A DNA stretch of 56,665 nucleotides, from the IMG/VR virus record IMGVR_UViG_3300035039_000184. One strand, 5' to 3'. This document shows, piece by piece, positions 19,501 to 56,665 of the stretch. This DNA comes from a virus. The notes below the pieces were generated by a model. It ran no database searches. It saw nothing but the letters and a program-made list of their open reading frames with translations, and was not told the origin of the DNA. The position numbers were made by a program, and so were the translations under genes. How positions within the stretch are numbered: the stretch's first letter is position 1; each line of letters opens with the position of its first letter.

Positions 19501-20608
19501 CGACAAAAAATGGAGGGCCTTCCGGCTGTCAAATACCCTTTTAGGCGGATATGACGAGCTTACGGAGACCGGAGAATGGATGAGAAACAACATCTGGCCC
19601 TTCTGGAGCTTCCAGGAGATAAACCTGAAGAGGTATTTCTGGACCTTCAAGAACGCCTACATCGACGGCAGGACCGCAGGCAAGGCAGGAGAAGCCGTAA
19701 TGGGCTCCGCGATAAAGAGCTCTCCCTTCATAGCCATGAGGATAGGGACCTTCGCGATAAGGGCAAGCCTCTGGTGGGCGGCGATGCAAGCCTTCAACCG
19801 CTGGAGATGGCCCGAGGAGGAAGAGAACCTGCCGGAGCACGTTAAGAACAGACCTCACCTGATCGTGGGCAAGAACGACGCAGGAGAGGTGAAGGTGATG
19901 ACCAGGCTCGGGCTTCTGCCGGATCTCCTGGAATGGTTCGGAGACGAAACTCCTCCGAGATATGCCCGTGAATGGCTCAACGGCAACATGACCATTAAGG
20001 ACATTGGCGAGGAGATGGCCTTCGGAGTCATAAACAAGACCGTATCCGGGACTTTCCCCTTCATGAAGTTCTTTTACGAGATGTCCAGCGGAAGGTCCAC
20101 CTTTCCTGACGTGAGAAGACAGAGGCAGATACGGGATAAGTGGGAGTATCTCTACGACTGGGTTGGCCTCGGAGACTTCTACCGAGTGGCCACGGACCTC
20201 CCCGACAAGGGATGGACGGACCTTGCGGAGAGAGCTCTTTCCAACAAGTATGATCCTATGGAAAGTTCCTATTGGGACACCGTTTCCAGGGTATACGAGT
20301 GGAAGGAGGATGTCCTCGGACAGAAGGGGCAAGGCTACTATGAATCTCCGAAGTCCCAGGCCCTGTACTATTACAAGAAGTCCATAAGGTACGGAGACAA
20401 GGAAGCCGCAAAGAAATATCTTCTGGATTACTTCAGGGCAGGGGGAACAGCGAAGGGATACGAGCAGTCAATGAGGTGGCTTAACCCCCTTGCTGGAATC
20501 GCAAAGAAGTATTGGCCTGTCTTCTACAACTCCCTGGACGAGGGGGAGAAGAAGGCTTATAAGAGGGCAATGGCCTACTATCAGCAGATGCTGAACGTGG
20601 GCCCATGA
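7526..20608 (+). CDS. giant (4,360 aa) polyvalent virion-module protein with N6-adenine methyltransferase and SNF2/DEAH helicase modules (DarB-like)
   Basis: A single uninterrupted ORF of 13,083 nt with SD agaggagag upstream. It has N-terminal hydrophobic helices (aa ~250-300), MTase motifs I and IV, and helicase motifs I-VI (see sub-features). A terminator follows. Confidence 0.85.
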   Translation: MDYLDEIIRKYERGSNVSAPSSSFERKDRERRESGDIIDEVIDGYETDSASGGSRFNWDRPDVPEEMDRTLNDVMSGYPEFPYPSGIDPTSGDTDEKERRLPYGTVLDKDVLAADAADMLISKSGNVSPISGLPVDEKEPLFGETGKKIEKAFGDKGMQTFSGILGSAGAFARNVERLANPENERIEAPVNPGVLGTDGQLLKGIGDRDPYEKKNTIFKAAKATADFLEEGNEQIQKNLLQGEDPTFWDKVFNGIGSSAFFLVPGALAATGIATAAKFSPSVAKWLGAGVGGVMEGFADAGTTYKQVLDDGGDFQDANAAGSLAFWMNVPLDVITDKLGFFGDNKATKSLIAKSLSVFVKNPALKNTMSNVAGGMAGRGLNEMFQEGAQNPIQETLTEKALEKSGKGTLTWADAVKAMPEISERVPESIYNEGLPAFVSAAIFGLPTHMMQMDQEQRVEEEKSAREKTVQEQRTKGIMDEAFESVTGIPSGTEVRPIVAKRDEDISSPSAGDAVGTYLEGEKAKTIDAAIDKVAGTQQEADVARSERWAGTVDAVNAVNKYLDEMERQQQEQDKKENEPVQNARKDLPQDMQDNLNVNDLEGQVLKRYNKDMDFLQDLQRRREELGEQGYQDLLKTALNNPKVYSDFRNRQKPVQKEEPVNQDTARAEEIVTPEIEGENVQEVEKPSEPESIKKGEVGQKLGSGEVVLTSTGRKTTPFPKVDMSTNRKAANTVKRVDRWLIQNAINEAEQRGDEFNLLQFRGSLDNPSQADKDSAAYYLFDEEFIQKPDPKILKDMTKEQPSKSTDDIKPGDTVYRKDNGQALEVVNADDPSLLTVKHPKTGTQFQMGKGTVELAPEGQNLAPESIPEPEPTNTPDKGDTGRTEPDIQAEGQKRTIQDLQSLTFDTIEMGHWDKETEGVGKNKGIKYRTAKYAAIDRDGKERIFQVKVSSNGKTQVKPLGRTDSQKDADDQSEWSKVPEDVQRLVNLHWPDLNLSQKATIGKIAAGLPVNEMTANAVLGGSARNKMLELFPNIKTLEDGKRALQEYVRLKREEKSSDIEAEGPGFTGLVGEKTPRALESLKQLLDDPNAVHLKGRSLKYVEEDGKGYYEDEEGTRMPDWTPIPGNPGYSARQYVRDNTLEPAKAVQEVMINENGAIARRVYRDGEQEAYGGFEAEDNLKNFMAGKPFEAFFDFFNQKPDQIQAPAEEAPEAAQPELTDYQRQREENSKAADEVRTLQTKGQNSVPGVRIEAAEEAGRMRGLLESGEITQEEWDSYVQDLKDSGKVEADESESSPAEKETLTYSHEDITRKTYSEGDLVRFRKSMDKSPRKIVEIDKSGKVRLEGSDVLRDTAEIVKVSEEGQSEQKPAKKQKKSPAKKLRGDFSKIPEKYASKIDTGENMDEDWARKQAFMDDAANYLRSLGKDLGWEPYRGKNGKGSIVNKNPSGPATKGSVSATFFVPNRDEGVYITIDADGSNISGVKSAPYGTHIMWRSTTRKDPFGGGTNRFENWDITTDALSSTIESELDSVIARNDGKAQSQKSDTIVNKGEGVIPNEPERTVNGDRERTEQESQRGGQELPDGGDTEGGSAVAAGGREQPVLEDSGQRADEDVRGAEPPARDGVRETELSDETVGMEGQPATEDTGEELPWNRGNGLVPTSARDDADATGPSLVSDNYDLRNKEPVLLTKGERRRINDQARELLNKKEPLTEDEKDILRQYTGEGGLSSGSVEALNQHYTDYQTIRAIYGALERSGFYFEKALEPAVGSGNFIGNAPRGVDWTTVDIDSTNHQIASKLYPEGNHYLLSYEQFKKSGFDLVISNVPFLQERGAGGLKVRPDIQTLHDFYFVHSLDRVKDNGIVAFITSKGTMDKKNSSVRKEIVEKADVLGAFRLPGGHFEKNAHTSVITDIIFLQKRPEGAVPSSEQKAINDSFVKATETGDGIVLNNYYHDRMESNFLGEVEVGKDKARFGKITYTINGQADLSRIDIGPYRPYKIQKKEKAAPESVDVDEIPRDSKDFQKWASENDILTRQNITRTGTDRDGNSFEIKERDPGFSENIIIESDAVYAVDKVIDFEDVSGSAKIYREVSYKERDRIKDLDWIRRDAASFQETSDPKYAESGKKLIESYRQIHKVHPKKDKKLRKIFKDAGEQTLFAELSSFFDEDFNPAPVLDIQTRYSDSGRAEVTDDSPLSIRAFANEDNKGIVDISKAEHLSMDELGDLLHSGYSLVSMGEEGAVVQNDVLYYSGNIYSKIESAEKIKKDIELGRVDDGHAIGEKLDEQIRSLEEIKPSPKTVDDINFKGNENWLLPIIKKYGIWDIDSSYDRKSGKIQYEATNARGFPDSVYSNYLNNNVLIKRDFDQRTQMQEPISSYLSRMREAEEHVTEVVETIKERIKSDQQAAEEIEYAYNSKFRAYVKPNYSRAQYLIQDVLNEIEAESVNPKEAGQPVKLRKNQIEWIIQAVYEGKGINAHDVGGGKTFASIALARVLKKRGIAHKPLFVVPAKTINKWERDIKTLFPKARVLNLGQLSKNKRTEQLFELANNNFDYVVISHEGFKAIKLPLDTEMKYFDDVVNEHIDDPDMKGSQAARNMEKIEKYRTVLKEAERDSRLTFDKLGIDAIIADEAHAFKNIGIRGELNKFGLGAAFGFSNRQKNRKDPKTGKIMYGENGKPLKEDSVSLMSSKSYDFRFKSNWIIENNNNKNVFLLTATPTPNKPMEIYTMLRHLGKDIFDEYGLGRDIDFSNNFFHLGTVQKPDDPGQTKNVLSAIINALELRGILNRYVDKISIEDMPWIKIPEAKEYRQFLNMSEGYRLIAEDLAERQSRAGSGRKGAGEDNIIAIYSGGRAASVDPRLYGGEHANVEVDVRSYDPGDDKIQWTIESVAEVAKKNRKAGQLIFLDKVGWEQIENEKLAEDMHSEIKSSLVDMGFKEKEIAIINGKYVTNPKTGREVASGDKNQRKQDIADMYNEGKVKVVIGSTDSMGEGMDLQVKTTDIYHLDIPWTPGGFRQRNGRGLRFGNENDSVNIHYLLMRGTFDAISMDVVMHKKGWNEALYDKEDADVIPTAEEMAGGAIPPREQLLIELETDPIKKQQLILSFDYKRMQGELGEYNQAAYRIRNRISTAREAIKANRLRLQEREQKLRESSPNEKIKDEKKRKEQHEKSKAFLRKGIETSKRKIQEIEDKITTLEKTLDELGEKARDANERISRFEESYLDEEKNFRRDVIERLAATEDNLDNSPAPDENSGTDTAEELDPDEEVTRRINEAYEEKTPPAGASVKFLRPDALIKALDSRKKNQGVNDFFVKKDKKKKDSESDPRTFEFTDKEMEKAHKAYSRGIDKESTWSKLLEAFMDMKNRSTRTFRHLPGGAPFAVARHVLLQLKRTIPSAQMDAEEKISAILTKETSEGIQLYDRTDLDLFTRKVYLEDFARDARDGLSLPEGYTEENVNVELQRLNEHLRENAPWILDSYRLRTEMWRKAKKEYIRQAGRAGTDMSKKFTKGDSYFRHQVLAHMMDQGRSIYGTGNKLKSPVTRGFLKERKGSELPINLNYAQAEFEVLAQTLADTHVWETIAIIDENYSITDRLKKMAVEMNNNNFKGLMEELVRIEQGVKTVDEDVRHEAQKRINKLSQKQAIALSRLSELAAMGELPTGPKGQFSRIVQELGDYYMLKKENKKDDVDVGKVKFSHKELMKYLSWLSKQEGDGQETILSRTFFKGVAEKKKAIKATLKAGDIKEVNWKDLVPDDYTIYQPREGSVFYKAYTIPEQMAESIASGLLTGLDLTPNQVKAVLARGPRHKEMCIPTPLAATLEELNPMGSRKEGPFSELYHTGIRTLKKFWLYGPTRWVKYAFRNLTGDSEAVVLGRQWDTLNPKHLKRATWELYQAVMAHRKPSKEFKDWAQMGGFMTFDRIQELGELKALERLQHLEVPDERALSKIKDKTWDRYWRAIDKAEGIREGVLRYASYLSYLEQMENNENGEPNNFGASNRDEIMALPDKKWRAFRLSNTLLGGYDELTETGEWMRNNIWPFWSFQEINLKRYFWTFKNAYIDGRTAGKAGEAVMGSAIKSSPFIAMRIGTFAIRASLWWAAMQAFNRWRWPEEEENLPEHVKNRPHLIVGKNDAGEVKVMTRLGLLPDLLEWFGDETPPRYAREWLNGNMTIKDIGEEMAFGVINKTVSGTFPFMKFFYEMSSGRSTFPDVRRQRQIRDKWEYLYDWVGLGDFYRVATDLPDKGWTDLAERALSNKYDPMESSYWDTVSRVYEWKEDVLGQKGQGYYESPKSQALYYYKKSIRYGDKEAAKKYLLDYFRAGGTAKGYEQSMRWLNPLAGIAKKYWPVFYNSLDEGEKKAYKRAMAYYQQMLNVGP
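12600..13300 (+). other. N6-adenine DNA methyltransferase module of the giant protein
   Basis: AdoMet motif LEPAVGSGNF (12806-12838) and catalytic motif ISNVPF (NVPF at 12985-12996), a (D/N)PP(Y/F)-type variant. Confidence 0.7.
14870..16650 (+). other. SNF2-family helicase module of the giant protein
   Basis: HDVGGGKTF (motif I, ~14945), IIADEAHAFKN (DEAH, 15392-15403), LLTATPTPN (motif III), STDSMGEGMDLQ (motif V), FRQRNGRGLRFGN (motif VI, ~16544). Confidence 0.8.
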
Positions 20609-20630
20609 GAGACGAGAGTCAAATAGAGAA

Positions 20631-20660
20631 GAGGATCCTTTCCAGGGTCCTCCTTTTTTT
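20631..20660 (+). terminator. rho-independent terminator after the giant gene
   Basis: Stem gaggatcc/gggtcctc (one G-U pair), loop tttcca, then cttttttt. Confidence 0.65.
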
Positions 20661-20680
20661 ATGAGAAAGGAGGTGTCCAT

Positions 20681-21313
20681 ATGACTTATCGCACAAACAC
20701 AGATGACTACAATCTTTTCATCGAAGCACTGGAATTCGTTCTCGACAAGGAGGGCGGACTTAACGACGATCCCGACGACAGGGGAAACAAGGGAGGAGTC
20801 ACCTGGAAAGGCGTCACACCGGGTGCTCTTGCCGCAGCGAGAAGGGCAGGAATAACGGACAAGTCCAGAACCACGGACCTCACGGACAAGGACATCGAGG
20901 ATATCTACTATCAACTCTTCTGGAGAGGTGCACACTGCCACGAGATACCGGATCCCCTGTGCTTTCCGATGTTCGACATATCCGTAAACCACGGAGCCGG
21001 AGGAGCAGTTCACATTCTGCAGGAGACGCTCAACGACTTTTTCCGGGATGAGCACGAGGTAGCTGTTGACGGTGCATGGGGACCTCAGACACACAAGGCA
21101 CTCATGCTCTTTGAAAGGCTATCAAAAATAGTTGGTGATACGGAGGCAGGGAAGTATCTGGAGCCTCTTGTGGCCATAGCCTCATGTGTGGCACTTTACG
21201 AAAGGGCCGAAACCTATGCGGAGATTGTGGAGAGCCGCCCGGTGAACAGGAAATACTTCTACGGCTGGATCAGGCATCGTGTAAAGGATCTGGGCAAAAG
21301 ACTGGGGTTTTAA
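20681..21313 (+). CDS. endolysin, glycoside hydrolase family 108 with C-terminal peptidoglycan-binding (PG_binding_3-like) domain
   Basis: SD aaggagg is upstream. The N-terminal motif LDKEGGLNDDPDDRGNKGGVTWKGVT matches the GH108 signature EGGxxxDPxDxGGxTxxGI. Confidence 0.8.
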   Translation: MTYRTNTDDYNLFIEALEFVLDKEGGLNDDPDDRGNKGGVTWKGVTPGALAAARRAGITDKSRTTDLTDKDIEDIYYQLFWRGAHCHEIPDPLCFPMFDISVNHGAGGAVHILQETLNDFFRDEHEVAVDGAWGPQTHKALMLFERLSKIVGDTEAGKYLEPLVAIASCVALYERAETYAEIVESRPVNRKYFYGWIRHRVKDLGKRLGF

Positions 21314-21315
21314 CC

Positions 21316-21624
21316 ATGCTCAATGACCCCAACTTCAAAATGCTCTTTAAGTCCATGGACAAGAAGCTGGACAAGGTTTCGGACTCCCAGGACAACATAC
21401 AGGAGAGGCTTGCCCATATCGAGCAGCAGCAGCTTGACCAGAAGTCTATCTGCATAGAGAGACACAAGATGCTTGACGCTCACGAGATGAGGATCCGTCA
21501 GATAGAGATAAACGAGGGGAAGACAAACTGGAAGCAGCTGTTCATGACCGGTTCAATTGGTGGGGCTATTGGCTTTGTCTGTGCCAAGTTCAACATCCCT
21601 ATACCCAAGATATTTGGAGGTTAG
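21316..21624 (+). CDS. lysis-associated coiled-coil protein with C-terminal transmembrane anchor
   Basis: ATG lies 2 nt after the endolysin stop. 102 aa, helical N-part plus hydrophobic FMTGSIGGAIGFVCAKF. The longer ORF-track start at 21184 overlaps the endolysin gene and is rejected. Confidence 0.55.
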   Translation: MLNDPNFKMLFKSMDKKLDKVSDSQDNIQERLAHIEQQQLDQKSICIERHKMLDAHEMRIRQIEINEGKTNWKQLFMTGSIGGAIGFVCAKFNIPIPKIFGG

Positions 21625-21626
21625 GC

Positions 21627-21767
21627 ATGAAGAGAACGAGGTGTGAAATCTACAGCAGGGTCGTGGGTTTTCTCTCTCCTGTCTCGCAGTGGAACAGGGG
21701 AAAGAAGGAGGAATTCAGGGACCGAGTGACCTTTAAAGGAGAGGAGGTGGAAAACAGAAATGCTTAA
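21627..21767 (+). CDS. 46-aa micro-ORF resembling the glycyl-radical C-terminus of anaerobic ribonucleotide reductase NrdD
   Basis: SD ggagg lies 6 nt upstream. MKRTRCEIYSRVVGFLSPVSQWNRGKKEEFRDRVTF.. matches the NrdD C-terminal pattern YSR(I/V)xG(Y/F)xxPVxxWNxGKxxE(F/Y)xDR. It is below the ORF-track length cut-off. Confidence 0.55.
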   Translation: MKRTRCEIYSRVVGFLSPVSQWNRGKKEEFRDRVTFKGEEVENRNA

Positions 21768-22164
21768 ATCTCTATCTGAACTAATACCCGGAATAGCACA
21801 AATAGCAGATGATCTCGTAACAAGCGACGAAGAGGTAAGGGCAAAGATCCTTGAAGAGAAGAGGATAGACACCGATGTAGTAAAGGCCCGGCTTGGAGTG
21901 CAGAGGGCATGGCTTTCCAGCAAGAGTCCCTATGTCGCCGGAGCCATACCCACGATACTGTGGATGATATCGCTGGTGATATTCTTCAACCATATACTTG
22001 CTCCGATTCTGGAGTGGGCGACAGTCAAGGATGTTCCCATCCTGGATCTTCCGGACTATTACGTAGGTTTCGGGAAGTGGATAGTCCTGGGGCTGTTCGG
22101 CAAAAAGGCATGGGACAGCTCGGAGGTAAAGATCGGAGGAGTCTACAGTCCCAAAAGGGATTAA
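21760..22164 (+). CDS. holin, 3-TM GTA-type (GTA_holin_3TM-like)
   Basis: The N-terminus LIPGIAQIADDLVTSDEEVRAKILEEKRIDTDVVKARLGVQRAW is followed by hydrophobic helices, matching the pattern of the holin-of-3TMs family. The gene sits in the lysis cassette. Confidence 0.6.
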   Translation: MLKSLSELIPGIAQIADDLVTSDEEVRAKILEEKRIDTDVVKARLGVQRAWLSSKSPYVAGAIPTILWMISLVIFFNHILAPILEWATVKDVPILDLPDYYVGFGKWIVLGLFGKKAWDSSEVKIGGVYSPKRD

Positions 22165-22303
22165 CATGTCCTAAGGGGGCATTACGGTGTCCCCTCTGTA
22201 AAGGCTTCACTCGCTGAGCCAGCCTGGCAGATCAGCGAGCTATCCGGAAATTCCGGACATCCGGCAATAATGAATTAATCACCACAATACGGAGGTGTTC
22301 GTA

Positions 22304-22429
22304 ATGCAATTTATGATAACCGCAGTGCTGATAGTCCTGTTCTTTGTTTTTATCGAATGGGACAAGAACAGAAAGGGAAGGAAGGGACCCATCGGCAAGA
22401 TTCTCGGCAGAAAACTGTTTAAATACTGA
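22304..22429 (+). CDS. 41-aa single-pass membrane peptide
   Basis: SD ggaggtg lies 7 nt upstream. MQFMITAVLIVLFFVFIEW is followed by a basic tail KNRKGRKGPIGKILGRKLFKY. It is the last ORF before the operon terminator. Confidence 0.45.
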   Translation: MQFMITAVLIVLFFVFIEWDKNRKGRKGPIGKILGRKLFKY

Positions 22430-22513
22430 CATTTACTTGCAACGACAATAAACTGTGCGATAATTAAGAGAGAGACGAGAGTTATATTTTCATCATTCTC
22501 TCCTTCCTATTTT

Positions 22514-22551
22514 CAGGGATCCTTGTGATGGGGGATCCCTGTATCATTTTT
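22514..22551 (+). terminator. rho-independent terminator ending the late/lysis operon
   Basis: Perfect 9-bp stem cagggatcc/ggatccctg, followed by tatcattttt. Confidence 0.7.
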
Positions 22552-22585
22552 AAGGTGTCATATAATATATGTTATGTTGCATTGT

Positions 22586-22882
22586 TCAGAATTTTGCAGT
22601 AAATTGCCTTATTCTTTCCTGAATCTGGTTTGCACTCTTCTTTATCATTTCCAGGTTCAGTCCCACCTTTATTCCGCACCTTTCCGCATTTTCGGTCCAC
22701 TCCTTGCCGGTAACCGTGACTCCTATATCACGAACTCTTGTCATTATCACAGATCCGGCATCAATTATTCTCCTGGATCTTTCAAGATCCTTCTGGGATG
22801 GCTCCCATTCCTTTTTCAGAACTCCCTCTGCATAGAGTTTGGGCTGCTCGGCCTTGGGCAGCGAATAGACTATAAGAGACAC
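22586..22882 (-). CDS. hypothetical protein (reverse strand, GTG start), possible regulator
   Basis: 98-aa ORF with the purine-rich stretch gaagagga 7 nt upstream of GTG. The same frame stays open for a further ~47 codons upstream (to 23023) without any ATG/GTG/TTG. Confidence 0.5.
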   Translation of the reverse strand: MSLIVYSLPKAEQPKLYAEGVLKKEWEPSQKDLERSRRIIDAGSVIMTRVRDIGVTVTGKEWTENAERCGIKVGLNLEMIKKSANQIQERIRQFTAKF

Positions 22883-23047
22883 GAGAAAATCCTCTTCCCT
22901 GTCTTGTGAAAAAAGCCACTTGTAGAATCCCTGCGAAATGTCCTCCGGTGCTTTTCTGGCTGCGAGAGTTGCGAGAAAGAAGGAACGAAGTTTTCTCTTT
23001 TTCCCGGCTTCCTTTCCAAAGGGGGTTATTTAATTGACTTTTTGGGG

Positions 23048-23076
23048 TTGACATATTTGATAATCAGGTGTAGATT
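23048..23076 (+). promoter_or_regulatory. sigma70-type early promoter
   Basis: TTGACA (23048-23053), 17-nt spacer, TAGATT (23071-23076). It faces the early operon in the gap between divergent genes. Confidence 0.55.
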
Positions 23077-23158
23077 TGAAAGGCAATATTCAATCCACAC
23101 AGATCCATCACAACTTTCAACGAACCTTGAAAATCGAATAGGAAAGGAGAGAGGCCAC

Positions 23159-23251
23159 ATGTCCCCAACCATCACAGACCAGCATGAACTGTCCACTTTC
23201 ATCGACGCAGCCTTTGGATATCGGGAGGAGGTGTCAGACAATGGTAATTGA
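23159..23251 (+). CDS. 30-aa hypothetical peptide, first ORF of the early operon
   Basis: SD aaggagag lies 7 nt upstream of ATG. Short, so weakly supported. Confidence 0.3.
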   Translation: MSPTITDQHELSTFIDAAFGYREEVSDNGN

Positions 23252-23516
23252 GACTTTTCCCGAAATCGAGGACGCAAAGGAGACATTTATGGACAAGATC
23301 TTTCCTCTCATGGAGAAAAGGTTTTGCTCGAAATGTCCTTATGCACGTATCAACCGTGCCCACTGGGACGATTATTTCGGAGGAAGTCCGGAGGAGTTTG
23401 AATGTCTGAGAAAAACGGAACCGGGAGACCGGGGCTGCTACTTCGAGGACAACGCAAGAGAAATAAGAAGCAAGCTTGAGGAGGTTGGAGAGTTATGCAG
23501 GAAACTGATGTATTAA
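23241..23516 (+). CDS. hypothetical Cys-rich small protein
   Basis: SD gggaggagg is upstream of the ATG at 23241 (an internal start of ORF 23184..23516). Contains CSKC...C...C, a possible zinc site. Confidence 0.5.
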   Translation: MVIETFPEIEDAKETFMDKIFPLMEKRFCSKCPYARINRAHWDDYFGGSPEEFECLRKTEPGDRGCYFEDNAREIRSKLEEVGELCRKLMY

Positions 23517-30914: not shown

Positions 30915-31141
30915 TGACAAATATAGAACAATTAAACGATACGATTGAAAATTTGCGAATAAAGATAGATAAATTGGAAGACGAAAACAAAAAACTACGA
31001 GAAGAGTTACGGACTACTGAATCACACTTACGCTCTGCTAAATTCCGGATAACTGAGGAATTAGAGCCAAGGATTAAAGAAGGTAAAAAAGCGTATGACA
31101 CGTGGGTATCTTCTCCAAATCGCATGGGAGGCGATGAGTAA
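30914..31141 (+). CDS. hypothetical coiled-coil small protein
   Basis: TAATG overlap at both ends. Heptad-like IENLRIKIDKLEDENKKLREEL. Confidence 0.5.
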   Translation: MTNIEQLNDTIENLRIKIDKLEDENKKLREELRTTESHLRSAKFRITEELEPRIKEGKKAYDTWVSSPNRMGGDE

Positions 31142-31791
31142 TGGAAAAATATCACAAGATACAGACAGTGTTTAAGCGCGATCCTGAGACAAAATTTAAG
31201 ACTATTCTTGAAGGTGAATATTCACTTCCTGAATTTGAATTTTTGAAAGACGCTACTTGGGTATGTACAGAAAAGGTAGACGGTACAAATATTCGTGCAA
31301 TCTGGGACGGAGAGAAAATTACCTTCAAGGGTAAAACAGACAACGCACAGATACCACCCTTTCTATTAGAAGCCCTGCAAAATGAGGTTTTTGATTTATT
31401 CACGGTTGAGTTGATTAGAAGCATTTTTAACGACACACCTGTATGTTTCTACGGAGAGGGATATGGAGCAAAAATACAGAAGGGTGGCGGTAATTATCGC
31501 AAAGATAATTCCTTTGTGTTGTTTGATATTAAGTGTAACAACATTTTCTTTGCCAGGGAAAAGGCCGAAGACATAGCCGATAGTCTTGGGATAGAAATAG
31601 TTCCCATTGTCGAGGAATGCAATTTATTTGAGGCTGTCGAAATTGCAAGAGAAGGATTCCAGTCATGGTGGGGGAAATTCGATGCAGAGGGGCTTGTCAT
31701 GAAACCCAAATGTGAACTATCAGACAGGAATGGGAACAGGATAATCACGAAGATTAAGCATAAGGATTTTAGAGATAAGGGGGAGCAGTGA
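31141..31791 (+). CDS. ATP-dependent RNA-ligase-like nucleotidyltransferase
   Basis: Motif I KVDGTN (31273-31290), motif III FVLFDI, motif IV EGLVMKP, motif V ITKIKHK. The N-terminus KYHKIQTVFKRDPET is typical of small bacterial/phage RNA ligase family proteins. Confidence 0.7.
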   Translation: MEKYHKIQTVFKRDPETKFKTILEGEYSLPEFEFLKDATWVCTEKVDGTNIRAIWDGEKITFKGKTDNAQIPPFLLEALQNEVFDLFTVELIRSIFNDTPVCFYGEGYGAKIQKGGGNYRKDNSFVLFDIKCNNIFFAREKAEDIADSLGIEIVPIVEECNLFEAVEIAREGFQSWWGKFDAEGLVMKPKCELSDRNGNRIITKIKHKDFRDKGEQ

Positions 31792-44597: not shown

Positions 44598-44963
44598 ATG
44601 GGAAGAATTATCATCGACAAGGCAGGAGAAAGTTACGAGGGGTGCATTACTAACAATCCTGACTACAATCCATTGAACCTCACAAAGACTCCTGTCCCTG
44701 AAGCTGAACGCAAGAAACAGATTGAGAAAGCGGAGAAGGGAATTGAAGACCAGCTTGGTCCTGAACTACTCGAAAGACTGAAGGATGAGGGACTTGCACT
44801 GCTTGTCGAGCTCATAAACAACGGACCGGCATATGTCGAGGCAAACCTCGAAAACCTTCCGATGGACCCCACAAGGCCGGCAAATGCGAGCAACAATCCT
44901 CTCCAGGTCGGGCTTTCGATGAGCCTTACCAGGGACAGCGAGGAAAGCGAGGATCCCGAATGA
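44598..44963 (+). CDS. hypothetical protein
   Basis: ATG at 44598 with gaagggag 9 nt upstream. 121 aa. Confidence 0.5.
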   Translation: MGRIIIDKAGESYEGCITNNPDYNPLNLTKTPVPEAERKKQIEKAEKGIEDQLGPELLERLKDEGLALLVELINNGPAYVEANLENLPMDPTRPANASNNPLQVGLSMSLTRDSEESEDPE

Positions 44964-45763
44964 TAACTATCATAGCAGGGGAAAACCAGACCTTCATCTT
45001 TTGCGACACCGAAGAGGAGAAAAGCGCGGAAGTACTGAAGGGGCTCGGAAAGGAGATCATAGAGATGGCAGAGGACGAGGAAAGATTTGAACACGCCGGA
45101 GAGATAGGCGACCAGGAAGAGGGTGGATATTCCGAGTGCATAGAGTCGGAATATGACAAGAGGATCTACCAGGAAGACCTTCATCTCGACGGAAGACCTG
45201 AGTATATGAGATTGTTGAAGTTCCAGGGGAACTTTGCGGACGCGGTACATGCCATGCAGAACGGCCTCGCTGTTCGAAGAAAGTCATGGGGAGACGACCA
45301 GTGGCTTGAGATGATGGACACCGTGGGAGCACACGACGACATCTACGTGAACGACGTTCTTATAGTCAAGTGCCCGAACGAGACCTACGACTGTTATCTC
45401 GCGACCGATGAAGACCGGTTCGAGGTGGAGGACTGGGGCCTTGTGGGAGCTCTCAAGTACCGCCTCAAGATGGAACAGGAGAAGTACCGCGAGGACATCG
45501 TTACAGACGACGAGAAGAGGATCCTCGGAAACTTCATAAAGTCCAGGAAGTTCTTTCATAACTACATCATGGAAAGAGGCAGTCATGTGCTGTTCTCCAC
45601 AGACGCCAGACAGAAGCTGTTTGAGGAGATATCTTCAATATATATCCGTGAGAACGTTGAGGAGATAGCCTACCAGACGGGCAAGATCAGCGACAAGGAC
45701 CTGTGGCTGGACTGCGTGATGGCCTCGGATATAGGAAATGAGAAAGGAAGGAATGAGAAGTGA
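44960..45763 (+). CDS. DUF2829 (Tad2-like) domain-containing protein
   Basis: Residues ~88-163 (nt ~45225-45450): NFADAVHAMQNGLAVRRKSWGDDQWLEMMD...YLATDEDRFEVEDWGLV fit the DUF2829 pattern F..A...m..G..v.R..W...D....DW..v. Extra N- and C-terminal regions are present. Confidence 0.6.
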   Translation: MITIIAGENQTFIFCDTEEEKSAEVLKGLGKEIIEMAEDEERFEHAGEIGDQEEGGYSECIESEYDKRIYQEDLHLDGRPEYMRLLKFQGNFADAVHAMQNGLAVRRKSWGDDQWLEMMDTVGAHDDIYVNDVLIVKCPNETYDCYLATDEDRFEVEDWGLVGALKYRLKMEQEKYREDIVTDDEKRILGNFIKSRKFFHNYIMERGSHVLFSTDARQKLFEEISSIYIRENVEEIAYQTGKISDKDLWLDCVMASDIGNEKGRNEK

Positions 45764-46118: not shown

Positions 46119-47069
46119 GTGAAAACCTTGAAACGTACAGGAATTATGTATCACCTGGCAGATCTTGACGGACACTGTTCCGGAGCTCTCGCCAGGTTTT
46201 TTTGTGAGATTGAGGGTTCCTATCCGTGCATGTTCCCCATGAACTACGGATACAAGGTCCCGGAAGAGATCTTCGGAATGGACAACGTGGTAATGCTCGA
46301 CTTCTCCCTTGACTATGACTCCATGTCAGGGCTGAAAGAGGTATTCGGAGACAACTTTGTCTGGATAGATCATCACGGCCCGGCGATCAACGAAATGCTG
46401 GAGCTCTTTATCCATGGGAAACAGAAGACTGGAGAGGCTGCGTGTGAACTGGCGTGGAAATATTACGCACCTTCATTTAAAGAGACGAAGGGTCTCGACA
46501 TGCCGGAACTGGTAGAGCTTCTCGGACGCTACGACGTCTGGGACCAGTCCGACAGCACGAGATGGAGTGAGGAGATACTCCCTTTTCAGTACGGAATGAG
46601 GGTAATGGAGACCTGTCCAAAGCGGAACTATGCATGGTGGCAGGACAGGTTCAAGGAATATATCTATCCCGGTGCTTCCGCATTCGAGAATAAGAAAAGA
46701 CTTTACAGGGTGATTACAGAGAAGCAGCGAGATGGCAGGGTAATACTGGAGTACCAGAAGCAGCAGGACAGGAAGTACATGGACGCATACGCCTTTGATT
46801 GCAAGTTCCGTGGACAGCCGGCAGTTGCCGTCAACCGTGGAATGATAAATTCAAGGAGCTTTGAGAGCGTCTACAATCCTGTCATTCATACGTTCATGAT
46901 TGCATTTTCGAGAAAGAGTAACGGTAAATATATCGTCTCTGTCTATTCAGAGGAAGAGGGAATACATTGTGGAATCATAGCCAAGGAGTACGGAGGAGGA
47001 GGCCATGCCGGAGCGGCAGGCTTTACACTTTCCGTTGATCCCGTTACAGCAGGGGTAATTGAGATATAG
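46119..47069 (+). CDS. DHH/DHHA1-family phosphoesterase (NrnA-like size)
   Basis: Motifs HLADLDGHCS (DxD), VVMLDFS, WIDHHGP (DHH) and EYGGGGHAGAAGF (DHHA1 GGGH). The start is GTG 46119 or ATG 46146. Confidence 0.75.
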   Translation: MKTLKRTGIMYHLADLDGHCSGALARFFCEIEGSYPCMFPMNYGYKVPEEIFGMDNVVMLDFSLDYDSMSGLKEVFGDNFVWIDHHGPAINEMLELFIHGKQKTGEAACELAWKYYAPSFKETKGLDMPELVELLGRYDVWDQSDSTRWSEEILPFQYGMRVMETCPKRNYAWWQDRFKEYIYPGASAFENKKRLYRVITEKQRDGRVILEYQKQQDRKYMDAYAFDCKFRGQPAVAVNRGMINSRSFESVYNPVIHTFMIAFSRKSNGKYIVSVYSEEEGIHCGIIAKEYGGGGHAGAAGFTLSVDPVTAGVIEI

Positions 47070-55885: not shown

Positions 55886-56665
55886 ATGCCGATATTTACC
55901 AAGAGAGAGGAGGATTTTGTTCTCGGTCAGGACATTCTTCCAGGACCGTTTAACAGCCTCTTTGACGGAATATATACAGACCTGAACCTTCTGGCCGTAG
56001 ACTTTTATGGTTCGAGCGAGCCCACGAGCACGGCCTATGGTATGAAGTGGCACGATACTGGTGAGACTCCGAACGTGATTCGGGTCTATACATCCGGCGA
56101 TACCGATCGCTGGCTATGGATGGGAATATGGATCGGAGCGGAAGTCAACCGTCCTTCCTACCCTGCAACAGGAGCAATATGGATAGACAGCGAAAACAAC
56201 TATTATGTCCATGTATATACCGGGTCTGCATGGCAGGCTACTGGGATATCAGCCGCAAGTGTGGTGTACGACAACACCGATTCCGGCCTGACAGCAACTG
56301 ACGTGAAGGCTGCCATAGATGAGATAGTTACATCTATAAATACTAAGGTTAATACATCGGACTACGAAGATTTGGACGTGCTCAACAAGGTAAAGACTGT
56401 TGACGGCACAGGTTCAGGATTAGACGCAGACCTGCTGGATGGACAACATGCGTCTCATTTTGATGATGCGATAAATACTAAGGTTAATACATCGGACTAC
56501 GAAGATTTGGACGTGCTCAACAAGGTAAAGACTGTTGACGGCACAGGTTCAGGATTAGACGCAGACCTGCTGGATGGACAACATGCGTCTCATTTTGATG
56601 ATGCGATAAATACTAAGGTTAATACATCGGACTACGAAGATTTGGACGTGCTCAACAAGGTAAAG
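55886..56665 (+). CDS. tail fibre protein, N-terminal part (open to the window end, continues at nt 128 of the circle; see 2..439)
   Basis: ATG at 55886 lies 4 nt after the upstream stop. There are exactly 260 codons to the window end without a stop. It was not listed in the ORF track because it lacks a stop. Confidence 0.8.
   Translation, partial: MPIFTKREEDFVLGQDILPGPFNSLFDGIYTDLNLLAVDFYGSSEPTSTAYGMKWHDTGETPNVIRVYTSGDTDRWLWMGIWIGAEVNRPSYPATGAIWIDSENNYYVHVYTGSAWQATGISAASVVYDNTDSGLTATDVKAAIDEIVTSINTKVNTSDYEDLDVLNKVKTVDGTGSGLDADLLDGQHASHFDDAINTKVNTSDYEDLDVLNKVKTVDGTGSGLDADLLDGQHASHFDDAINTKVNTSDYEDLDVLNKVK
56336..56665 (+). repeat. in-frame 135-nt (45-aa) perfect tandem repeat in the tail fibre gene (copies at 56336, 56471, 56606; third copy diverges after the junction at nt ~128-202)
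   Basis: The unit ataaatactaaggtt...cattttgatgatgcg encodes INTKVNTSDYEDLDVLNKVKTVDGTGSGLDADLLDGQHASHFDDA. The period was measured from the coordinates 56336/56471/56606. Confidence 0.85.

Follow-up and report, generated by a model that had tools for sequence, protein, structure and literature searches.

The 46-amino-acid (aa) open reading frame (ORF) at positions 21627–21767 on the plus strand of the 56,665-nucleotide (nt) viral DNA analyzed here (IMG/VR record IMGVR_UViG_3300035039_000184, the whole of which is referred to as the window) is a stand-alone gene for the glycyl-radical loop of class III ribonucleotide reductase (RNR). Its product is homologous to the small subunit of a naturally split NrdD found in anaerobic bacteria, and it is very probably a functional copy of that subunit. 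As far as can be read from the genome sequence, the phage carries this 46-aa tail and no other RNR part. On the whole, we consider it probable that the phage supplies a detachable, oxygen-consumable radical subunit to the NrdD and NrdG of its host.

The ORF and its lysis cassette

The window represents a phage genome, encoding a large terminase, a portal and a major head protein, and no tRNA genes were found in it. An exact 127-bp terminal overlap (1–127 and 56539–56665) indicates that the contig is probably a complete circular assembly. The overlap falls in 135-bp in-frame tandem repeats of a fiber-like gene (near 56336–56665), where the repeat number is uncertain. Elsewhere, the phage encodes a Tad2-like domain protein (44960–45763), a DHH/DHHA1 phosphoesterase (46119–47069) and an RNA ligase (31141–31791).

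The lysis cassette consists of four genes, all on the plus strand. The first encodes an endolysin with GH108 and PG_binding_3 domains according to Pfam (20681–21313), assigned as endolysin by PHROGs as well. Two nt past its stop codon begins a gene for a 102-aa protein (21316–21624), taken from gene calls on related contigs, which has no family match and no match among the PHROGs. The TAG stop of this gene (21622–21624) lies 2 nt before the 46-aa ORF, which runs from the ATG at 21627 to the TAA at 21765–21767 and encodes MKRTRCEIYSRVVGFLSPVSQWNRGKKEEFRDRVTFKGEEVENRNA. A Shine-Dalgarno (SD) sequence, GGAGG, can be read at 21616–21620, 6 nt upstream of the ATG, and is retained in variant contigs whose ORF starts with GTG (L005 and L007). 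The last gene encodes a holin of the GTA_holin_3TM type (21760–22164; Pfam PF11351, PHROG holin), whose ATG at 21760 overlaps the end of the 46-aa ORF by 8 nt and whose own SD sequence, GGAGG at 21744–21748, sits within the 3' codons of the ORF. The original prediction had described the position amid the lysis genes, the SD sequence 6 nt upstream, the 2-nt gap and the 8 nt shared with the start of the holin gene, all of which hold in the sequence.

Consensus scanning revealed terminator-like hairpins on the plus strand upstream (20631–20652) and downstream (22514–22541) of the cassette and no promoter-like (sigma-70-like) or terminator-like sites within 20681–22164. The gapless packing of the genes, with hairpins located only outside the cassette, suggests that they form one late transcription unit. 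An Rfam scan of 20000–23500 gave no match. The 102-aa gene is the most variable of the cassette, as 33 of its 103 codons differ in L005, where the 46-aa ORF and the holin gene are almost unchanged. It appears as a mosaic hot spot, with a 67-aa ORF and a gap in its place in contig L010.

Two other readings of this region were rejected. A fusion with the upstream gene by read-through or frameshifting was ruled out, since the two genes are in different frames and no start codon lies between the preceding in-frame stop and the ATG at 21627, so that the ORF cannot extend upstream. An antisense ORF of 100 aa (21621–21923) was taken as a shadow of the coding strand.

Similarity to the NrdD C-terminus

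The resemblance to the C-terminus of NrdD, which had been proposed from the letters of the sequence, proved significant when the product was aligned to family profiles. The Pfam profile NRDD (PF13597) matches residues 4–36 with an E-value of 4.2e-9 and 36 bits (cut-off 26.2), and the match covers columns 531–562 of 562, i.e., the last 32 columns of the profile. The NCBIfam equivalog TIGR02487 (NrdD) matches the ORF in the same manner with columns 549–580 of 581. On the structure of T. maritima NrdD (4COI), residues 5–29 of the ORF align to residues 612–636 of the chain, with Gly14 falling on the glycine of the structure. Codon 14 (GGT, 21666–21668) therefore encodes the glycine that both the profile and the structure alignment place at the radical glycine of the RVVG(F/Y) motif. 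The motif of the ORF reads SRVVGF..PVSQWNRGKKEEFRDR, with the radical glycine in RVxG(F/Y) followed by WNxGKxxE..DR. All 14 invariant and 7 near-invariant residues of the family are present in the phage ORF (alignment A1), including the invariant Gly14 column, and the codon in L007 is the synonymous GGC.

No zinc ribbon (CxxC/H ... CxxC) precedes the loop on the same chain, as the ORF begins past the ribbon. The product does not belong to the Gly_radical family of the pyruvate formate-lyase (PFL) type (PF01228), since a Pfam scan at E ≤ 10 returned NRDD only. In PHROGs v4, there is no family for the peptide, which shows only a weak match, to the final part of the PHROG for full-length NrdD. 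An AlphaFold2 model of the lone peptide was of low confidence (pLDDT 63.6, pTM 0.19).

With two large chains of NrdD and a single NrdG as queries, tblastn against the window gave nothing at E ≤ 1e-3, which bears out the earlier statement that no full nrdD or nrdG is present in this genome. Likewise, a D. peptidovorans RNR chain of the class I/II type gave noise alone (E ≥ 0.89). As the phage genome encodes neither NrdD nor NrdG, the partners of the peptide must come from the host.

A naturally split NrdD in cells

A search restricted to small proteins identified 90 stand-alone homologues of 33–81 aa, for which the named sources are Synergistales (Dethiosulfovibrio and Synergistales bacterium 53_16) and Halanaerobiales (Iocasia, Halanaerobium and Halarsenatibacter). 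In both groups, nrdD ends just after the zinc ribbon, and the radical loop is a separate gene encoding 40–60 aa located after nrdG. For example, the operon of D. peptidovorans comprises nrdD (679 aa), nrdG (228 aa) and an ORF of 50 aa. The C-terminus of its NrdD large chain, ..CPLCAAEAEAEREREEVISS (also given as ..CPIHGYIAGEHEFCPLCAAEAEAEREREEVISS), lies past the ribbon and has no radical motif, and in the split hosts the zinc ribbon remains on the large chain (..CPIHGYIAGEHEFCPLC..). Together, the two D. peptidovorans proteins tile the NRDD profile, with the large chain covering columns 1–533 and the small ORF columns 531–562. On 4COI, the large chain corresponds to residues 104–610 and the phage ORF to the segment 612–636. 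Iocasia displays the same nrdD-nrdG-small layout with an NrdD ending in ..CPKCDAEQGYSKAETRVSV, and the layout is found in all three contigs carrying the closest relative of the phage ORF (P0004) as well as in loci L097–L112. G009, a close relative from the same phylum with a one-chain enzyme, reads ..CPICGSKTEVYSRVVGY.. (also given as ..CPICGSKTEVYSRVVGYY..) at the junction, and since this chain is continuous there, the split is a simple, clean fission.

DPANN archaea and CPR bacteria commonly have another gene order, nrdD-small-nrdG. In one such locus (L113), the ATG of the small ORF overlaps the stop of the large gene (ATGA) behind an AAGGAGG site. Among the best 80 cellular loci, the radical loop is fused to nrdD in 36, the order is nrdD-small-nrdG in 23 and nrdD-nrdG-small in 10. 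The remaining loci comprise six with a lone small ORF, four whose small ORF shares the locus with a more distant nrdD or nrdG, and one with a full nrdD and an extra stand-alone domain.

The phage ORF resembles these small subunits in being 46 aa long (within 40–60 aa), in starting at the post-ribbon junction with a basic leader, MKRTRC, and in having the residues of the family. It differs from them in its surroundings, as neither a truncated nrdD nor nrdG lies beside it or anywhere in the phage genome. Inspection of the split enzymes also showed that the large chains end in a short acidic tail (AEAEAEREREE, L001:7230–7289), and that the small subunits, including that of the phage, start with a basic leader (KRTR, KGKTR or KRQK). 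The acidic tail and the basic leader may form a charge-complementary docking aid.

Other arrangements were observed in metagenome-assembled genomes (MAGs). In a Minisyncoccales MAG (L134:6122–6412), an ORF of 92 aa lies between nrdG and a complete nrdD of 717 aa that has a radical loop of its own, in the order nrdD, 92-aa ORF, nrdG. The 92-aa ORF consists of a CxxC...CxxC zinc ribbon and a near-identical radical loop, so that this locus has a true spare-part arrangement next to a one-chain enzyme. In Smithellaceae and Desulfobacterales MAGs (L115, L142, L160 and L164), a radical loop forms the end of open frames of 100–166 aa and a conserved ..L(K/R)N(F/Y)Q.. motif stands before it; the fetched flanks contain neither nrdD nor nrdG. 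Finally, in the MAG 'bacterium' bin.193 (L161:2225–3801), the small ORF, with nrdG behind it, lies about 1.5 kb past the point where the match to the NrdD large chain ends.

Closest relatives and likely host lineage

The closest relative of the phage ORF, P0004 of Synergistales bacterium 53_16, is identical in 33 of 35 core residues, and its gene sits after nrdD-nrdG. Core identity to the ORFs of D. peptidovorans, L098 and L099 is 88%. The phage ORF has the signature of Synergistales (RTRCE.., GFLSPVSQ, RDRVTF) and not that of Halanaerobiales (RQKCE.., FLTPVSQ, DRKTY). In a tree of 54 radical loops, which is based on too few columns, the ORF groups with Synergistales sequences in a part that lacks resolution, and moderate support was obtained for the pairing of the Iocasia prophage and host copies alone (94/80). 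We infer the likely host of the phage from these relatives of the ORF itself.

A survey covered 268 species genomes from the phylum of G001, the Synergistales genome containing L098, and operon layout was checked in G001–G003 and G028–G031. Strong matches (78–99 bits) in short frames were found in 32 of the 268 genomes, and two further genomes had 70-bit matches in a one-chain NrdD. About 100 genomes had weak matches in frames of ~700 aa, in which the one-chain NrdD belongs to a more distant type. The open frames of 289 and 461 aa that surround two Synergistota matches were discarded as high-GC artefacts, as the small ORFs have their own Met. In addition, homologues of the phage portal were found as distant prophages with 37–40% identity in 23 of the 268 genomes, and the three genomes with the best portal homologues encode a one-chain NrdD.

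Lone copies in phages and extra copies in cells

In IMG/VR, 354 stretches were confirmed. Among the best 80 of these loci, 70 have the small ORF on its own, their flanks containing neither NrdD nor NrdG, eight have a full nrdD, and two others have the small ORF with NrdD or NrdG elsewhere (L017 and L031). In L031, an NrdD match alone is found near the small ORF. The stretch of L017 is jumbo-sized (203,584 bp) and carries nrdD, nrdG and the small ORF directly past nrdG, i.e., the whole split system on a virus; its nrdD match shows a break past residue ~390. The invariant residues are the same in the phage copies, in the small subunits of cells and in fused C-termini, an agreement that is partly imposed by the search patterns.

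A second phage copy with a similar position was found in a myovirus-like prophage of Iocasia frigidifontis (L015:6001–6132). This 43-aa copy follows a tail-fiber assembly gene and directly precedes a holin of the Phage_holin_4_1 family, a different family from that of the window, which is followed by an Amidase_2 endolysin. It is thus a second, unrelated phage in which the gene for the peptide adjoins a holin. A further small ORF of Iocasia, with the locus-tag prefix GM661 and apparently in the same genome, follows nrdD-nrdG.

Multiple copies were also seen in cells, as genomes G028–G031 contain 2–4 copies each, one of which follows nrdD-nrdG in every case. In G031, one copy separates terS from terL in a prophage that has a P22-type portal (L190:8001–8126), and another locus (L192) has an extra copy near an integrase and an IstB-like gene. 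Chromosomal copies with an identical core lie beside a gene for a PAS-GGDEF diguanylate cyclase in G031 (L189), G030 (L193) and G029 (L198). Class I/II RNR gave no match in G029 and G031 and matches in G001–G003.

GenBank phage records gave two weak matches alone, to ANMV-1 and an unannotated gut phage, and no cultured phage with the ORF. In the archaeal virus ANMV-1 (KP703175), the annotation as anaerobic RNR belongs to a 144-aa protein (CDS AJP62049, L177:3680–4114) that consists of a zinc ribbon and a radical loop alone (..CPKCFNLDRTLRNYQTCEMYSRIVGYLRPV..).

Proposed role during infection

In the proposed mechanism, the ORF would be co-transcribed and translationally coupled with the lysis genes, and the host NrdG, a radical-SAM activase, would install the radical on Gly14 of the phage peptide. 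Activases of glycyl-radical enzymes work on a radical domain that has flipped out of the barrel, and the activated phage peptide could then dock into the large subunit of host NrdD, either replacing or adding to the host small subunit. Oxygen cleaves the chain of glycyl-radical enzymes at the radical glycine; in a split enzyme, oxygen or side reactions would destroy only the radical-bearing chain, and with the damage confined in this way, the small subunit would become the consumable part. Extra copies provided by the phage may consequently keep or raise dNTP synthesis for replication of phage DNA. By analogy, we infer that the peptide could be the functional counterpart, for NrdD, of what GrcA/YfiD and T4 Y06I are for PFL. 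A spare part for damaged NrdD had been among the original suggestions and comes close to this reading, yet it missed that the nearest lineages have a natural two-piece NrdD. Because these lineages encode the radical subunit separately, the phage would copy an existing detachable subunit rather than mimic the tail of a one-chain enzyme. For the broader picture, in which a two-component class III RNR is widespread and many unrelated phages, along with at least one virus of archaea, encode just its exchangeable ~45-residue peptide with the radical glycine so as to work with host NrdD and NrdG and sustain dNTP synthesis, the balance tips just slightly in favor. Against the supply of a radical subunit, it can be said that a gene for nucleotide supply would not obviously be expected to be expressed late, together with lysis genes, and that the nearest prophage portals sit in genomes with a one-chain NrdD.

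Among the other explanations, an antagonistic one deserves to be weighed first, namely that the peptide is a decoy or dominant-negative form that titrates NrdG or blocks the NrdD large subunit and thereby lowers host dNTPs, for host takeover or the exclusion of other phages. The peptide appears to have all residues needed to bind NrdG and NrdD, and a productive and a blocking subunit look the same at the level of sequence. Yet a phage without its own RNR would starve its own replication, and the phage copies retain the radical glycine and all invariant residues, as catalytic subunits do. Moreover, the fact that hosts keep 2–4 copies, some of them chromosomal beside the PAS-GGDEF gene, suggests that extra copies benefit the cell, and we therefore regard a decoy as unlikely.

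It could also be speculated that the peptide acts as a spare part of the GrcA type in the strict sense, rescuing an oxygen-cleaved one-chain host NrdD that has a radical loop of its own. Stand-alone radical domains do adjoin full-length NrdD, as the 92-aa ORF of L134 illustrates, the archaeal virus ANMV-1 has its 144-aa version, and the one-chain NrdD of the genomes with the nearest prophage portals would fit as well. However, the close cellular relatives of the ORF (88–94% core identity) are all the third gene of a split nrdD-nrdG-small operon, and the one-chain NrdDs of the phylum match the profile of the small ORFs weakly (17–33 versus 78–99 bits). In addition, the ORF lacks the zinc ribbon that is kept by the longer spare-part-like proteins. 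Rescue of a one-chain enzyme is thus quite unlikely, and supply of the small subunit to a split NrdD remains the preferred reading.

Selection and genomic position

Compared with the Synergistales genes, synonymous sites of the ORF are saturated (pS 0.74–0.95), while pN is 0.08–0.145, giving a pN/pS of ~0.1. DNA homology to these genes is limited to ~98 nt of the ORF, and because the flanks are dissimilar, the acquisition is old. Among the related contigs, which are 92–100% identical over kilobases, the ORF shows a change of the start codon from ATG to GTG and two synonymous third-position changes, one of them in the codon of Gly14; as the 10 contigs examined were retrieved by exact protein identity, their ORF conservation is biased by ascertainment, and the invariance among them is a weak point.

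These data bear on the third option of the original prediction, a gene remnant, i.e., a neutral hitch-hiker or decaying fragment that kept its SD sequence by chance. The gene is indeed very short, lies between lysis genes and has no partner genes in the phage. Against decay stand the saturated synonymous sites with pN ~0.09, the retention of all 21 constrained residues with no frameshifts or stops, the variant contigs with GTG, likewise a start codon, in place of ATG and nothing else but two synonymous changes, and the lone copies at differing genomic positions in several unrelated phages. A remnant is accordingly very improbable, and this option was rejected.

Least plausible of all, with hardly any probability left to it, is a role in lysis, whether as a leader ORF setting holin translation or as an oxygen- or radical-sensitive lysis timer: the 8-nt overlap, the holin SD sequence inside the ORF and the Iocasia prophage copy directly before a holin would suit it, but the peptide is highly charged with no hydrophobic stretch, transmembrane segment, lipobox or conserved association with holins, holin homologues of 57% and 50% identity (L202 and L203) are preceded by PAAR and baseplate genes and no such ORF, other copies lie between terS and terL or near an integrase, and a leader-ORF function would not conserve NrdD residues. 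With holin homologues lacking the ORF, and with a different holin or terS and terL as neighbors in other phages, the place of the ORF among the lysis genes looks like an insertion site for cargo and not like a lysis function.

Implications

If the broader picture of a widespread two-component class III RNR with phage-borne radical peptides is true, the peptide would represent the first detachable radical cofactor outside PFL as well as a new class of viral auxiliary gene. A natural NrdD with a separate, replaceable radical loop makes the spare-part question directly testable with three small genes, and for enzymologists the NrdD radical peptide would be a minimal substrate of the NrdG activase. 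For the virus, the strategy would be economical, as 141 nt rather than the ~2.8 kb of nrdD and nrdG would suffice to act on the dNTP supply of strictly anaerobic hosts. There are also consequences for annotation, since such ORFs are labeled 'anaerobic ribonucleoside-triphosphate reductase' or 'hypothetical', and a truncated nrdD is scored as complete.

Previous work offers points of reference for these implications. GrcA can replace the cleaved domain of PFL, the single repair known for oxygen-damaged glycyl-radical enzymes. According to a 2026 review, formate lyases are the sole glycyl-radical enzymes with identified spare parts, and it is left for future work to show if any further ones exist (PMC13450708), which agrees with the earlier remark that no spare-part system had been described for NrdD. 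A survey of RNR insertions and extensions covers the split class II RNR and not a split class III enzyme (PMC9669993). The survey of phage RNRs by Dwivedi et al. (2013) describes nrdD split by introns, inteins and homing endonucleases and no lone tails (PMC3653736). In the literature searched, nothing was found on a split or separate NrdD radical domain, an autonomous NrdD glycyl-radical cofactor or a phage RNR spare part, and the RNR and glycyl-radical enzyme papers searched do not describe the nrdD-nrdG-small layout.

Comparison with known systems

Compared with the one-chain NrdD and NrdG systems of phage T4 (1H78/1H79), E. coli, T. maritima (4COI/4U3E) and P. copri (8P23), the ORF is homologous to the C-terminal radical loop. 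It differs from them in that the last ~35 residues form a separate protein without the barrel, the ATP-cone and the zinc ribbon.

The split class II RNR of Pseudomonas aeruginosa, NrdJa/NrdJb, provides a parallel in which a catalytic chain is likewise distributed over two genes with the C-terminal module on the second. However, it belongs to another RNR class, and its second chain is large and folded and carries reducing cysteines instead of the radical site. To our knowledge, no phage carries the small piece of NrdJa/NrdJb alone.

GrcA/YfiD of E. coli and Y06I (vs.6) of T4 are, like the ORF product, small stand-alone carriers of the radical-glycine motif of a glycyl-radical enzyme, and here too a phage version exists. 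GrcA is activated by the activase of its parent enzyme and can replace the radical domain, and by analogy the ORF product might do the same for NrdD. Yet the two belong to different families, as the ORF matches NRDD and not Gly_radical, and they differ in length (46 versus 127 aa). In the host lineage, moreover, the small piece of NrdD is an obligatory subunit, whereas GrcA is a back-up.

Finally, the ORF can be compared with the RNR auxiliary metabolic genes of phages, with which it shares the derivation of a phage gene from the nucleotide-reduction machinery of the host. Those genes represent whole nrdD with or without nrdG, or adjacent pieces of nrdD, whereas the phage of the window carries the 46-aa tail alone. 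What is new here is a probable GrcA-like detachable radical carrier for class III RNR, borne alone by a phage.
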